Shown here: positions 91 through 5,174 of the stretch, piece by piece
Numbering within the stretch: the first letter of the stretch is position 1
Layout of the letters: every line of letters begins with the position of its first letter
Virus record (IMG/VR): IMGVR_UViG_3300007747_000033
Length of the DNA stretch: 12,766 nt
Origin: a virus
Taxonomy: Duplodnaviria > Heunggongvirae > Uroviricota > Caudoviricetes
Direction: 5' to 3' (one strand)
Position numbers and translations under genes: made by a program
Notes under the pieces: generated by a model
Database searches by the model: none
Seen by the model: the letters and a program-made list of their open reading frames with translations, nothing else
What the model was told of the DNA's origin: nothing

Positions 91-273
91 GTGTTTAATT
101 TCAGCAGAATTGCGGACTATTACGCTCACGCCCCCTCTGAAATTCAGTGTTTTTTCGAGGAGTCGGCGCTGGTGATCATTGATTATCAGCAGGCTATTGA
201 AAATGGATTTGTCCGGATGACGCAGCGCATGGTGGAGATCATGCATGGTGGTGAGGAGGAGGAATATGCGTGA
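91..273 (+). pseudogene. Possible 3' remnant of a gene truncated by the IS insertion; unknown product with acidic C-terminus (GGEEEEYA)
   Basis: The reading frame is open from position 1 through the IS end to the stop at 271-273; the first start-like codon (GTG 91) is the first codon after the IS boundary. No recognisable motif. Confidence 0.2.
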
Positions 274-1198
274 TGATTTTTGCGCCTTTATTCTGACTCA
301 CGGGCGACCGGACAAAGTTCTGACTTACCGGACGTTGCGTCGTGCTGGCTATACCGGGAAAATTTTTATCGTTGTTGATGATGAAGATAAGACACGGCAT
401 CAGTACATGGCTGAATTTGGGGAACAGGTGCTGGTGTTTTCCAAAGCCGATATCGCCAGTCGTTTTGACGAAGCCGATAATTTCTGTGACCGCCGCTCAA
501 TTTTTTACGCCCGTAATGCCTGTTTCGACCTGGCAAAACTGGTCGGGTGTAAATACTTCATTCAGCTCGATGATGATTATCACGAGTTCCAGTTTCGGGT
601 GGATCGCAACTATGACCAGGCCTATTTTCCGATAAGGAAACTGGATGCGATCCTTTCTGAAATGCTGGCGTACTACGAATCAATACCTGCTCTTTCCATC
701 GCTATGTCGCAGGGCGGGGATTTTCTTGGTGACAATGGCGGCCATGCTTCGTGGGTGAAACGCAAGGCAATGAACAGCTTTATCTGTTCGGTTGAACGAC
801 CGTTCTCATTCATGGGGCGCATTAACGAGGATGTGAATACGTACACGAATCTCGGTCGCTGTGGTGAATTGTTTATGACGATCGGTGCTGTCCAGTTAGG
901 GCAGAAACAGACGCAGAAAAACAGCGGCGGAATGACCGAGCTGTATCTGGATTCCGGAACCTACGTTAAAAGTTTTTACTCCGTCATGTATGCGCCGTCG
1001 TGCGTAAAAATCTCACTGATGGGTGCCAGCCATAAACGCATTCACCATCAGGTCACCTGGAACAACGCTGCAGTAAAAATCCTTCACGAAAAATACAGGA
1101 AGAAGACACCCTGCATATCAATGGGGGTGACAAATGATTCCGTATTCGAAAGTCGAGTCTCTGGCAGCGTGCCGGATGACTGCACAACAAATCGCTGA
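266..1198 (+). CDS. Hypothetical phage protein, putative GT-A-fold nucleotide-sugar transferase (DxD-type)
   Basis: ORF 245..1198 in the track; preferred start ATG 266 just downstream of the GAGGAGGAGG run (253-262) (ATG 245 is an alternative). Linear motif order typical of GT-A glycosyltransferases: AFILTHGRP strand, FIVVDDED about 25 residues later, then hydrophobic strand plus DxD (YFIQLDDDY) about 95 residues in. Motif-pattern call only. Confidence 0.5.
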   Translation: MRDDFCAFILTHGRPDKVLTYRTLRRAGYTGKIFIVVDDEDKTRHQYMAEFGEQVLVFSKADIASRFDEADNFCDRRSIFYARNACFDLAKLVGCKYFIQLDDDYHEFQFRVDRNYDQAYFPIRKLDAILSEMLAYYESIPALSIAMSQGGDFLGDNGGHASWVKRKAMNSFICSVERPFSFMGRINEDVNTYTNLGRCGELFMTIGAVQLGQKQTQKNSGGMTELYLDSGTYVKSFYSVMYAPSCVKISLMGASHKRIHHQVTWNNAAVKILHEKYRKKTPCISMGVTNDSVFESRVSGSVPDDCTTNR

Positions 1199-1385
1199 CG
1201 TTCTGGATGTTGATCTGAACCGACTGAAAGAAAATCGGGAAGCAATGACAGATTTTTATGCGGCCATCCGTAAGGGCAGAGCGAAAGGTGAAGCCGAGTT
1301 ACGAGCGGCATTGTTTAAGCTTGCCAGAAAAGGGGATGCCTTTGCTCTGCGCGAACTACTCAGGGTGGATAAAAATCAGGACTAA
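1134..1385 (+). CDS. Small HTH-like protein, possibly a DNA-packaging or small-terminase-associated domain
   Basis: ORF in track; ATG 1134 preceded by GGGGGTGA (ATG 1176 is an alternative). Overlaps the upstream gene by 65 nt in another frame. Contains TAQQIADVLDVD and GRAKGEAELRAALFKLARKGD, which I associate (from memory, unverified) with phage small-terminase N-terminal domains. Confidence 0.45.
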   Translation: MIPYSKVESLAACRMTAQQIADVLDVDLNRLKENREAMTDFYAAIRKGRAKGEAELRAALFKLARKGDAFALRELLRVDKNQD

Positions 1386-1388
1386 CTG

Positions 1389-2483
1389 ATGAGCAGACCG
1401 GACTGGGGGGCGTTGCAGCAGGAGTATATTGCTGAATACACCCGCTCCGGTATATCTCCGGTGGCATGGTGTGAAGCAAGGGGACTGAATTACGCAACAG
1501 CCCGTCGTTACATCAAAAAAACTCCGAAAAATGCGCAGACAGAAATGTGCAAAACTGCGCAAAAAAGTGCGCAGAAAAAATCTGCGCAGACTGCACAAAA
1601 GCGGAACGAAAAATCTCAGGAAAAAAAGCCAGTATTCGATGCGGGCCTGAATGAGGGCGACGCGGAGGAATTTTCGTTCTGTCCCGATGAATTCGGCATT
1701 TCTGACCAGCAGGCTAAGTTTGCGATGCTTGTTGCTCAGGGTAAAAAGCCGACAGAGGCGTACCGACTAGCCGGTTATGAGGGGCAAGGTGCGACAGCTA
1801 ATAGCAACGCCAGTCGTATGCTTAGAAATGCCAGGGTTTTTCGCGCTATCAGCTACTTCCGCAATCAGTACCAGAAACGCTATACCGCAGACCTGGATTT
1901 ACTAGTGAGTCAGTTGATGGCCATTGTCCTGGCCGACCCCAATCAGCTTGCACAATTTCGCCGTGTTAACTGCCGTTATTGCTGGGGCGAGAATCATCTC
2001 TACCAGTGGCGCGATATAGCAGAATTCGACAAGGCAGCGGCGCAGGCTTCCAGAGATGGCAAACCCGAACCGGAATATGGAGGCCTCGGCTTTGTTGATA
2101 ACGCCATACCCAATCCGGACTGCCCGAAGTGCTGCGGTGAGGGAACGGGACAGCTTTATATGGCTGATACCACTCTGCTTGATGGGGATGCGCGGCAATT
2201 ATATGCAGGGGCAAAATTCGGAAAATTCGGCGTTGAGATCCTGCTGGAGGATAAGGCTGCCGCCCGGCGTGAATTGTTGCGTTTGCTTTCTGCTGGCGGG
2301 GCTTTATGTGCAGATAAGCGGCTACAGGAACTGGAAATTGAACGGCGCAGAATGGAAAACCAGAAGCTGCGCAAAGAGATCGAAACGGTGGAAGATAATG
2401 AACATCCCCAGCCTGTGGCGATCAATATTAATGTGGTTGATGCCAGAGTAAGGAGTGATGAAGATGATCTCTCCGACGCTTAA
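1389..2483 (+). CDS. Terminase small subunit (Terminase_2-like core) with N-terminal extension, low-complexity linker and Cys-rich insert
   Basis: ATG 1389 after AGGA (1378-1381). Core region ISDQQAKFAMLVAQGKKPTEAYRLAGYEGQGATANSNASRMLRNARVFRAI fits the small-terminase HTH consensus (L..KQ..F..EY....NAT.AA..AGYS...A.....LL..P.V...I). Lies immediately upstream of the large terminase. Also has CRYC...CPKCC and a C-terminal coiled-coil-like region. Confidence 0.7.
   Translation: MSRPDWGALQQEYIAEYTRSGISPVAWCEARGLNYATARRYIKKTPKNAQTEMCKTAQKSAQKKSAQTAQKRNEKSQEKKPVFDAGLNEGDAEEFSFCPDEFGISDQQAKFAMLVAQGKKPTEAYRLAGYEGQGATANSNASRMLRNARVFRAISYFRNQYQKRYTADLDLLVSQLMAIVLADPNQLAQFRRVNCRYCWGENHLYQWRDIAEFDKAAAQASRDGKPEPEYGGLGFVDNAIPNPDCPKCCGEGTGQLYMADTTLLDGDARQLYAGAKFGKFGVEILLEDKAAARRELLRLLSAGGALCADKRLQELEIERRRMENQKLRKEIETVEDNEHPQPVAININVVDARVRSDEDDLSDA
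1532..1597. repeat. Cluster of six TG(C/T)(G/A)CA hexamers (four exact TGCGCA) at 9-15 bp spacing inside the small-terminase gene
   Basis: TGCGCA at 1532, 1556, 1568, 1583; TGTGCA at 1546; TGCACA at 1592; separated by A-tracts. Coincides with the (S/T)AQK peptide repeats of the encoded linker. Confidence 0.6.
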
Positions 2484-3765
2484 TGTGCCTCAGGCGCGAT
2501 TTCTTTCAATGCCCCATAAATTTAAAGCCTATATTGCTGGTTTTGGCTCGGGCAAAACATGGGTTGGGTGTGGCGGCATATGCAAGGGGATTTGGGAGCA
2601 TCCAGGTATAAATCAGGGATATTTTGCGCCAACGTATCCCCAAATTCGCGATATTTTTTACCCTACAGTGGAAGAAGTTGCTGCTGACTGGGGATTGAAC
2701 GTAAAAATTAATGAGGGAAATAAAGAGGTTCACTTTTATTACGGACGCCAGTATCGGGGAACCACTATCTGCAGATCGATGGAGAAGCCACAAACGATCG
2801 TCGGTTTCAAAATTGGTAATGCGTTGGTGGATGAACTGGACATTTTGCCGAAGGAAAAAGCCAGAACGGCGTGGCGCAAGATAATTGCACGTATGCGTTA
2901 TAAGATTGATGGACTTCGCAACGGTATTGACGTTACAACCACGCCGGAAGGATTCAAATTTGTCTACGAGCAGTTTGTTAAAGCCGTGCGTGAAAAAACA
3001 GAGCTGGCCTCACTGTATGGTCTGGTGCAGGCATCTACTTTCGATAATGAAAAGAACCTGCCAGCAGATTACATTCCTTCGCTTCTTGAATCATACCCTC
3101 CAGAGCTGATTAAAGCCTATCTTCGAGGACAGTTTACTAACCTGACAAGTGGTACTGTTTACCATCAGTTTGACCGGAAACTGAATAATTGCGAAGAAGT
3201 GGAGCAGCCAGGGGAGCCGATTTATATTGGGATGGATTTTAACGTTGGAAAGATGGCGGGAATCGTCCATGTGCTGCGTTTGGGGCTTCCATGTGCGGTA
3301 ACTGAAATCATCAATGCCTACGATACGCCGGATATGATCCGCATCATTAAAGAACGCTTCTGGCTGTATGATGGGAATGATTACCGGAAAGTGAGGGAAA
3401 TTTATATTTATCCAGATGCTTCCGGGGATTCCAGAAAATCAAGTAACGCAAGTACGACGGATATAGCCCAGCTTAAGCAGGCTGGTTTTAACGTTGTGGT
3501 GAACAGCTCGAACCCGCCAGTAAAAGATCGCGTTAACTCAATGAATGCAATGTTCTGCAATGCCAATGGTGAGCGTCGCTATAAAGTTAATGTGAAGCGT
3601 TGCCCGTTATATGCCGAATCTCTGGAGCAACAGGTCTGGGATGAGAAGGGGGAGCCTGATAAAAAATCTGGCAATGATCACCCGAATGATGCCGGAGGTT
3701 ATTTCATCGTTAAGCAATTCCCTATTGTCAAACCGACCGGAAGAGTCACATCACTTCGGATTTAA
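2464..3765 (+). CDS. Terminase large subunit
   Basis: ORF 2455..3765; preferred start ATG 2464, 8 nt after AGGAG (2451-2455); GTG 2455 and ATG 2458 are alternatives. Walker A-like AGFGSGKT near the N-terminus, and C-terminal acidic nuclease-type motifs (IGMDFN, YPDASG, HPNDAGGYF). Overlaps the terS stop. Confidence 0.85.
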   Translation: MISPTLNVPQARFLSMPHKFKAYIAGFGSGKTWVGCGGICKGIWEHPGINQGYFAPTYPQIRDIFYPTVEEVAADWGLNVKINEGNKEVHFYYGRQYRGTTICRSMEKPQTIVGFKIGNALVDELDILPKEKARTAWRKIIARMRYKIDGLRNGIDVTTTPEGFKFVYEQFVKAVREKTELASLYGLVQASTFDNEKNLPADYIPSLLESYPPELIKAYLRGQFTNLTSGTVYHQFDRKLNNCEEVEQPGEPIYIGMDFNVGKMAGIVHVLRLGLPCAVTEIINAYDTPDMIRIIKERFWLYDGNDYRKVREIYIYPDASGDSRKSSNASTTDIAQLKQAGFNVVVNSSNPPVKDRVNSMNAMFCNANGERRYKVNVKRCPLYAESLEQQVWDEKGEPDKKSGNDHPNDAGGYFIVKQFPIVKPTGRVTSLRI

Positions 3766-3767
3766 TT

Positions 3768-5174
3768 ATGGCTGATATATCAACACCCAACCTCGACTAT
3801 AACGATATGCTGGAGGCGTGGGATATTAACGACGCACTGATGGGCGGTACGCTTGAAATGCGCAGGCAGGGGGAAAATTATCTCCCAAAATGGCCTAACG
3901 AAGATGAAGACGCTTATAAAAAACGCCTGTCTGTGGCTACGCTACTTCCTGTGTATGAAGAAAGCATCAAGCAAAATATTGGGCGCATATTTGCAGAGCC
4001 GACAGTATTGAGTGAGGAAACGCCGGCAAAAATCAGGGAATATGCAGAAAATATCGACATGGAGGGGAGCCGACTGGATGTGTGGGCGCAGCAATTTTTC
4101 AGCCTCGCATTTCAGTATGGTGTGGCACATGCGCTGGTGGACTATCCACGAACGGATATGAAAGAGATTCGGACAAAAGCCGATGAAAACGCGGCCGGTG
4201 GTCGTCCGTACGTTACGATGCTGAATCCACGCCAGGTTATTGGATGGAAATCGAAAGTTGAAAAAGGGAAAGTTGTTCTCACTGATTTGCGTATAAAAGA
4301 GGTCATCATTATTGATGGTGATGATTTCGGGCAGAAGAAGGTGGAGCAGATCCGCCATATTATGCCCCGTCGAGTTGAAATTTATCGACGTAGCGAAGGC
4401 ACTAATGGCGAATCTGTCTGGACGCTTCATGAGTCATGGAATACCAGCCGTGATGATATTCCTCTGGTAACACTGTACACGAAGAAAACAGGATTTATGC
4501 GTGGTACACCGCCATTGCTTAATCTTGGCTTGCTGAATATCAAGCACTGGCAAAGCCAGAGCGAGCAGGACAATATTCTTCATGTTGCCCGCGTTCCATT
4601 GCTGGTGGCCTACGGGCTGGACAGGAATGAAGAACTGACGGTTGGTGCATCCACCGCTACGATTTTTGAGGACAGAACAAAAAATGGCCTCGAATATGTT
4701 GAACATAGTGGCGCAGCGATAGAATCTGGCGAAACATCACTTGAGAAGCTGGAAAATCAGATGCGTCATGCCGGCGCTAAACTTCTGCGTGCTGAAAATA
4801 CATCCACCAAATCTGTTGATCAGACTAATGAAGAGCGAATGCAGGAAAACTCGCCGCTTTATACAATGGCGAACTCCCTCGAAGATGCCCTCGATAATAT
4901 TCTCCAGATAATGGCGGAATGGATCGGAGAGAGTTGCGGTGGCAATGTGGATGTGCGCACTGAACTGGATGTATCTGCCCAGGTGTTTGACTCATCCTCC
5001 GCGCTGGCTGTTCAGTCATTGCGTCAGGGCGGTGATATACGTCAGATTGATGCGGTTCGGGTGTTGCAGGCGTTGAAATTTATCGATCAGGATTCCCGTC
5101 CAGAGGAAGTGATCGATGAATTAAAAAATCAGAGTGTAATGCTGATGGAAATCAATGATGCAAACCGTGAATGA
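3768..5174 (+). CDS. Portal protein
   Basis: 468-aa ORF starting 2 nt after the terL stop (translational coupling). Position between large terminase and Mu-F-like minor head protein, and size, are typical of a portal. Assigned by synteny. Confidence 0.65.
   Translation: MADISTPNLDYNDMLEAWDINDALMGGTLEMRRQGENYLPKWPNEDEDAYKKRLSVATLLPVYEESIKQNIGRIFAEPTVLSEETPAKIREYAENIDMEGSRLDVWAQQFFSLAFQYGVAHALVDYPRTDMKEIRTKADENAAGGRPYVTMLNPRQVIGWKSKVEKGKVVLTDLRIKEVIIIDGDDFGQKKVEQIRHIMPRRVEIYRRSEGTNGESVWTLHESWNTSRDDIPLVTLYTKKTGFMRGTPPLLNLGLLNIKHWQSQSEQDNILHVARVPLLVAYGLDRNEELTVGASTATIFEDRTKNGLEYVEHSGAAIESGETSLEKLENQMRHAGAKLLRAENTSTKSVDQTNEERMQENSPLYTMANSLEDALDNILQIMAEWIGESCGGNVDVRTELDVSAQVFDSSSALAVQSLRQGGDIRQIDAVRVLQALKFIDQDSRPEEVIDELKNQSVMLMEINDANRE

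Follow-up and report, generated by a model that had tools for sequence, protein, structure and literature searches.

In phages SPP1 and SF6, the packaging (pac) site overlaps the 5' end of the small-terminase gene (terS) and has short repeated boxes with A-tracts that are bound by a helix-turn-helix (HTH) ring. P22 has one asymmetric pac site, about 22 bp long, and the cosB R-sites of lambda are several short repeats recognised by the N-terminal winged HTH of gpNu1. In P1, seven TGATCA/G hexamers lie inside the small-terminase gene pacA, the first about 70 nucleotides (nt) after the part that encodes the HTH, and the hexamer clusters flank an integration host factor (IHF) site and the mapped cleavage sites. 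When the P1 hexamers were mutated synonymously, packaging fell about 9-fold (PMC10028697). For most enterobacterial prophages of the pac type, the pac site has yet to be located, and a 2024 paper says so even of the well-studied ES18 (PMC11260489). Here we analysed the 12,766-nt virus record IMGVR_UViG_3300007747_000033 (Caudoviricetes), the whole of which is called the window, and describe an array of TGCGCA-type hexamers inside its terS. By analogy with P1, we think it probable that this array is the cis-acting recognition part of a P1-like pac site in a headful-packaging Rac-like prophage, and that it is bound by the N-terminal HTH of the terS product.

The terS product has an N-terminal HTH, a disordered linker rich in Lys, Ala and Gln, a Terminase_2 core, and a C-terminal tail whose coding sequence overlaps terL (coordinates in Table 1). 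The initial annotation described six TG(C/T)(G/A)CA hexamers within 66 bp of terS, and their positions and sequences proved to be exactly as claimed. The six 6-bp copies occupy nt 144-209, in the 5' part of the gene, and account for six of the 16 TGYRCA matches in the window. When the window was shuffled 2000 times with dinucleotides preserved, the maximum was four TGYRCA in 66 bp, reached in two shuffles; five or six never occurred. The hexamers start 14, 10, 12, 15 and 9 bp apart (mean 12), with A-runs between them. They had also been noted to coincide with an (S/T)-A-Q-K peptide repeat. Indeed, five of the six read nnT-GCN-CAR (x-Ala-Gln), but the copy at 1546 stands in another frame and is read aTG TGC Aaa (Met-Cys-Lys), a frame difference that had been missed.

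Because five of the six copies fall on x-Ala-Gln, the hexamers could be a by-product of coding: selection would act on the (S/T)-A-Q-K linker peptide, and the hexamers would follow from the codons used. GCG-CAG is, moreover, a fairly common coding of Ala-Gln in these genomes. However, when synonymous codons were redrawn from the codon usage of the window with the array peptide kept, the observed six TGYRCA were reached in only 2 of 20,000 trials and at least four TGCGCA in 4 of 20,000. The peptide region is also predicted to be disordered, with an AlphaFold2 confidence (pLDDT) below 50 at linker residues 56-87.

The comparison across genera bears on the same alternative. We scanned with the N-terminal domain, taking one genome per species, and obtained 53 loci, 46 of which had an intact frame and the A(R/K)RYIK motif. 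The ARRYIK form was found in 37 species-level loci from many Enterobacterales genera, and all 37 carried four to six TGCGCA at gene nt 120-260, where the density was 35.7 per kb compared with 0.68 per kb elsewhere in the loci. The 185 TGCGCA hexamers of these loci occupy all three reading frames, with 138 read as x-Ala-Gln, 37 as Val/Leu/Met-Arg-x and 10 as Cys-Ala, and the peptides are unrelated; out-of-frame hexamers occur in intact full-length open reading frames (ORFs) of dozens of genomes. Ala-Gln dipeptides of the linker were coded T-GCG-CAR in 134 of 152 cases (88%), compared with 43 of 209 (21%) in control ORFs of the same loci, where GCG was used in 63% of the Ala-Gln dipeptides. The synonymous T before Ala-Gln was present in 93% of linker dipeptides versus 34% in the controls. 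Over nine species, the entropy at third codon positions was 0.05 for the hexamers, 0.79 for the HTH-coding region next to them and 0.54 for the spacers of the array. Since loci selected by their hexamers would make the entropy test circular, the nine species were picked by N-terminal identity and a downstream anchor, independently of the hexamers. Conservation at synonymous positions in homologues, the check suggested in the initial annotation, thus favoured a DNA element. Taken together, the results strongly support selection on the hexamers at the DNA level, with the DNA motif rather than the (S/T)-A-Q-K peptide being conserved. The coding by-product, which had been raised as an alternative, was rejected as hardly tenable because the hexamer, found in all three frames, is kept where the peptide is lost and because of the biased coding of the linker Ala-Gln dipeptides.

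Which hexamer is present largely tracks the variant of the HTH. The ARRYIK domain was paired with TGCGCA in all 37 loci of the species scan, and also in Vibrio phage douglas, E. coli phage GER2, and the loci L184, L185 and L192. The AKRYIK domain was paired with TGCGAA, often as the palindrome TGCGAATTCGCA, and with essentially no TGCGCA in 9 of 9 loci of the species scan; the same pairing was seen in Yersinia, Providencia, Klebsiella RothC and Pasteurellaceae phages. Translation of TGCGAA in the Pasteurella relatives gives Cys-Glu or Ala-Asn. An AKR and an ARR domain of enterobacterial origin can agree at every one of residues 1-34, and the association of domain and hexamer is therefore not the split of one clade. 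A third pairing was found in the terS of the Shiga toxin (Stx) 1 phage SH2026Stx1 (L145, about 1625-1690), in which a related HTH with 'TARTRIK' is accompanied by four YGATCAT with a 12-bp period encoding the peptide IDHEIDHKTDHEIDHD. These YGATCAT units are Dam sites and resemble the left hexamer cluster of P1 pac, and the terS N-terminus of SH2026Stx1 recurs in about 80 Stx phage records.

The TGCGAA loci also bear on whether the array works as RNA. Self-complementary UGCGCA units could pair in the terS mRNA, or in single strands, and regulate translation or stability, and the array of the window does fold well (-29.8 kcal/mol, z = -5.3 versus shuffles). Repeated palindromes, however, fold well automatically, and covariation is impossible when all units are identical. 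Pasteurella phage Pmp11, which has the same architecture with a non-palindromic direct TGCGAA repeat, showed no excess folding (z = +1.1). In addition, some spacings (7 bp) are too short for hairpins, and an Rfam search of the array gave no match. We therefore consider an RNA or single-strand structure very unlikely.

The variation within E. coli was assessed over 89 loci from E. coli and IMG/VR, among which there were 27 distinct alleles. The array consensus of this set is six perfect TGCGCA, with the TGTGCA and TGCACA of the window reading as single-base departures from it. No allele varies at hexamers 1, 3 and 5, whereas hexamer 4 reads TGCGCG in the alleles of Ecol_316, LR-25 and L153; the number of copies per allele is five to seven. 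A TGCGCA at hexamer 2 yields Met-Arg-Lys, so that one DNA word gives different peptides. Polymorphism within the species did not show better conservation of the hexamers than of the spacers, and constraint was visible only at between-genus distances. Copy number also changed by whole units, through a 12-bp deletion in strain AST215 and a 10-bp TGCGCAAAAC duplication in LR-25 that frameshifts the gene. Such changes, together with changes in A-run length, would be expected of neutral replication slippage, by which the array would be a recently expanded, functionless tract resembling a microsatellite. We regard this as highly improbable, since the array is kept in Enterobacterales, Vibrio and Pasteurellaceae despite divergence of the spacers, the frames and the protein around it, since hexamer positions are conserved and spacers are not, and since a different HTH comes with a different hexamer.

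The A-runs of the array (1515-1630) are hot spots of frameshifting, where bases are both gained and lost. Annotated pseudogenes arise from array frameshifts in ETEC1747 (-1 bp) and LR-25 (+10 bp), and dozens of truncated terS products of 81-90 residues are present in protein databases. In the allele P0036 / L153, three +1 insertions in A-runs restore the frame, which leaves the linker in another frame with the hexamers kept; this allele was set aside as evidence on frame because a homopolymer sequencing error is possible. Rac-SA53 (L002) is annotated as a deletion fusion without the N-terminal HTH; it retains five hexamers, of which three are broken, one of them synonymously.

Across the loci, the array always starts a few codons after the 44-residue N-terminal domain. 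The ORFs upstream of the 46 loci belong to 39 homology groups and the terS cores to three, and the ARR cassette occurs on all three cores. On these comparisons, the HTH is the only constant neighbour of the array. VE-T10 has only the HTH and the array in common with the window, and carries a different terS core and a PBSX-type terL. Conversely, Actinobacillus phage pPE4 (L003, about 3840-3900) has a terS core more than 90% identical to that of the window and an unrelated N-terminal HTH, which is followed by repeats of its own, GTTTCCAC x2 and GTGGAAA x2. In VE-T10 and pPE4, the cassette is thus flanked by mosaic joints.

The same loci speak to the alternative that the array binds the terS product or another protein for a role other than packaging, such as autoregulation of terS and terL or binding of the upstream ParB/Srx-like protein. 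Autoregulation is common in HTH proteins, and ParB/Srx and glycosyltransferase genes lie just upstream in Rac-like prophages. The diversity of the upstream genes argues against this role, as does the invariable place of the cassette at the N-terminal end of a small terminase, a protein known to recognise pac or cos; in P1, the homologous arrangement is a proven pac site. We judge such a role unlikely, and a regulatory or other-protein site is the less economical reading, given that the array has no constant partner but the small-terminase HTH.

The N-terminal domain itself was modelled by AlphaFold2, with fair confidence, as three helices (residues 6-20, 24-31 and 35-41; pLDDT 75-87). The third, residues 35-41 (YATARRY), is the predicted recognition helix and contains residue 39. 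The domain gave a sub-threshold match to the HTH of IS66 TnpA, and a Pfam search returned no model for it. It falls into about 190 protein clusters at 50% identity, and the database proteins P0210, P0257, P0287, P0314 and P0329 have four to seven tandem matches to this HTH domain. A profile of 15 N-terminal domains was aligned by hhalign with P1 PacA (87.8%, E 3.3e-6), with columns 6-43 matching PacA residues 3-40, an alignment of moderate strength because it covers only about 38 residues. Pairwise BLASTP of N-terminal domains against PacA gave E = 0.002 and 0.001, and the two proteins have '..N(Y/P)xTARRY(I/L)..' in common. The analogy with P1 pac drawn in the initial annotation held better than expected: the HTH encoded just 5' of the array aligns with PacA, and the P1 hexamers occupy the equivalent place in pacA.

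Based on these observations, we propose that the array acts as the recognition part of pac in the following way. The terS oligomer would present several copies of the extra N-terminal HTH (residues 1-44), which would bind the TGCGCA hexamers immediately 3' of the DNA that encodes them and so mark phage DNA for TerL. TerL, the presumed nuclease and motor, would then cut near the array, and headful packaging would start rightward; the binding, the cleavage position and the packaging direction are steps that we infer. The (S/T)-A-Q-K peptide would be an incidental translation of the DNA repeat, placed in a disordered linker that may tolerate almost any sequence. The HTH and the array would travel jointly as a specificity cassette, recombining onto different terS cores. 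More tentatively, and with less confidence than in the pac reading itself, we suggest that the HTH and the array form a portable pac-specificity cassette on unrelated small-terminase cores in phages of Enterobacterales, Vibrio and Pasteurellaceae, including Stx phages and P1. Under this wider reading, a helix-hexamer code would be largely readable, with ARRY paired to TGCGCA, AKRY to TGCGAA and ARTR to YGATCA.

Several points weigh against a pac element read by the N-terminal HTH. Hexamers 2 and 6 are polymorphic within E. coli, and the commonest E. coli allele, which is that of the window, has only four perfect TGCGCA. This polymorphism, together with the frequent frameshifts, is consistent with redundancy among the copies or with decay of cryptic prophages. 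The spacing at helical turns that had been proposed holds approximately, at a mean of 12 bp, but there is no regular helical phasing: spacings range from 9 to 15 bp here and are irregular, at 7-16 bp, across relatives. The next TGYRCA after the array is at 1949, so that the window has a single cluster and no second one as in P1. A scan for the IHF consensus over the 2 kb 3' of the array, with one mismatch allowed, gave no match, and the array motifs TGCGCA, TGTGCA and TGCACA contain no GATC (Dam) site. Foldseek comparison of the modelled N-terminal domain with the PDB found nothing significant (best E about 1), although the top matches were all HTH DNA binders. The terS product also has the canonical DNA-binding region of Terminase_2, and its extra N-terminal HTH might have another role. 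In the locus L265 (981-1110), the HTH '..TAKRHIKG' with Lys39 is accompanied by five TGCGCA, one TGCGAA and one TTCGCA, and P1 PacA has ARRY yet is paired with TGATCA hexamers. Residue 39 alone therefore does not set the specificity, and a strict one-residue code (Arg39 for C, Lys39 for A) was rejected on account of L265 and P1; the hexamer type tracks the HTH variant largely and not absolutely. Finally, no measurement of packaged ends or of binding was found in the literature for phages with this cassette. Nor did the searchable literature yield a description of the TGCGCA array.

The DNA of the window comes from the late region of a Rac-like lambdoid E. coli prophage. Records submitted as induced Escherichia phages contain DNA identical to the window, and so do many E. 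coli chromosomes, where it lies between trkG/ParB-like genes on one side and ydaY on the other. The terS genes of vB_EcoS-666R9 and vB_EcoS-473R12 are 100% identical to that of the window. The module is common: of 5,426 complete E. coli genomes, 914 matched this region of terS, and in 876 the match covered at least 80% of the region. The assignment of terS rests on Pfam Terminase_2 (PF03592), which matched residues 122-321 with 35.1 bits, above the gathering cut-off of 26.1, and on phrog_51 terS (E 2.4e-76); genes identical to it are annotated in RefSeq as terminase small subunit. Searching solved structures with the terS and terL sequences returned nothing useful. By Pfam, the packaging module, putatively of the headful type, includes a TerL with Terminase_6N and Terminase_6C, a portal with DUF4055, a MuF-like protein and a P22-type coat protein. 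The nearest phage relatives of terL are Kagunavirus and Jersey-like siphoviruses. Kagunavirus and Jersey-like phages are headful packagers.

Table 1. Features of the window discussed in the text, ordered by position.
Feature	Position	Strand	Basis or remark
TAGT/GREB1-like glycosyltransferase	245-1198	+	Pfam PF20691; phrog_842 'beta-glucosyl-HMC-alpha-glucosyltransferase'
69-residue ORF	1177-1385	+	adjoins terS upstream
terS, small terminase, 364 residues	1389-2483	+	ORF, translation, Pfam Terminase_2, phrog_51
N-terminal three-helix (HTH-like) domain, residues 1-44	1389-1520	+	AlphaFold2, hhalign to PacA
A-runs of the linker region	1515-1521, 1527-1531, 1561-1566, 1575-1580, 1623-1629	+	frameshift-prone
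Low-complexity linker, residues about 45-100, holding the array	1521-1688	+	AlphaFold2 pLDDT
Hexamer array, proposed terS recognition (pac) element	1532-1597	.	clustering, recoding and conservation tests
TGCGCA copies of the array	1532, 1556, 1568, 1583		
TGTGCA variant of the array	1546		
TGCACA variant of the array	1592		
Terminase_2 core of terS	1752-2351	+	Pfam; CxxC...CxxC insertion
terL, large terminase	2455-3765	+	Pfam Terminase_6N and Terminase_6C; PHROG terL families
Portal	3768-5174	+	DUF4055
MuF-like protein, scaffold-like protein, P22-type coat protein	3' of portal	+	

Other features of these genes may be noted. In the terS core, the CxxC...CxxC segment (about 1971-2135) looks like a zinc-ribbon insertion, and its Cys195, Cys198, Cys245 and Cys248 were invariant in an alignment of three diverged homologues. 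The overlap of terS with terL is 29 nt long. Two alleles of the terS C-terminal tail (2280-2483) occur, ending '...DEDDLSDA' or '...PMPGVDNVD', each paired with one of two terL alleles of 1302 or 1329 nt; this pairing is consistent with the tail being the TerL-binding part. Upstream, the 69-residue ORF matched residues 145-218 of the PHROG small-terminase family phrog_309 (E 8e-23) and may be what is left of another terS, or its partner. The glycosyltransferase gene follows the end of a ParB/Srx-family gene and stands directly 5' of the packaging genes, and it may represent a DNA-modification module coupled to packaging.

If the array is such a recognition element, its prediction would show where headful packaging begins and which way it runs, hence also the origin and direction of lateral transduction of the neighbouring chromosome, and would permit searches for pseudo-pac sites. 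A related HTH domain is present in Stx-converting phages. If the cassette reading is true, packaging specificity, the starts of lateral transduction and pseudo-pac sites would be predictable from sequence, and packaging could be reprogrammed by swapping about 200 bp. Prediction of the recognition element would also offer a compact cassette for the engineering of transducing particles, and the natural series of HTH and hexamer pairs would be of use for the specificity of small terminases, which is still debated.

Among the described systems, SPP1 and SF6 are alike in that the terS core and G1P belong to the same Pfam family, Terminase_2. In contrast, the window has an additional N-terminal HTH before the Terminase_2 region and 6-bp units in a coding linker, and its sites have no sequence similarity to those of SPP1 and SF6. 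With lambda, the likeness lies in an N-terminal DNA-binding domain of the small terminase that recognises short repeats (proposed for the window). However, lambda packages by cos, with fixed cohesive ends, and depends on IHF; its sites are non-coding, and its domain is of another fold family. In the P22 gene 3 and Sf6-type systems, temperate enterobacterial phages with headful packaging have their pac inside terS, as is proposed for the window. For the phage Gally of E. coli LF82, a coverage peak maps inside terS (PMC9928086); Gally was ruled out as a mapped example of the cassette, its terS being Sf6-like and lacking the HTH cassette and the hexamers.

P1 is like the window in arrangement: palindrome-like TGNNCA hexamers are repeated towards the 5' end of the small-terminase gene, immediately 3' of the segment encoding the HTH. 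The two differ in the hexamer, TGCGCA in the window versus TGATCA/G in P1; since TGCGCA has no GATC, control by Dam methylation would not operate in the window. They also differ in that the window lacks an IHF site and has one cluster of six, whereas P1 has 4 + 3 flanking the cut site; two hexamer clusters are present in some relatives. In the remainder of the protein, the window has a Terminase_2 core and not PacA, and its TerL is of the Terminase_6 type and not PacB. The array of the window has the architecture of P1 pac and is probably related to it by descent.

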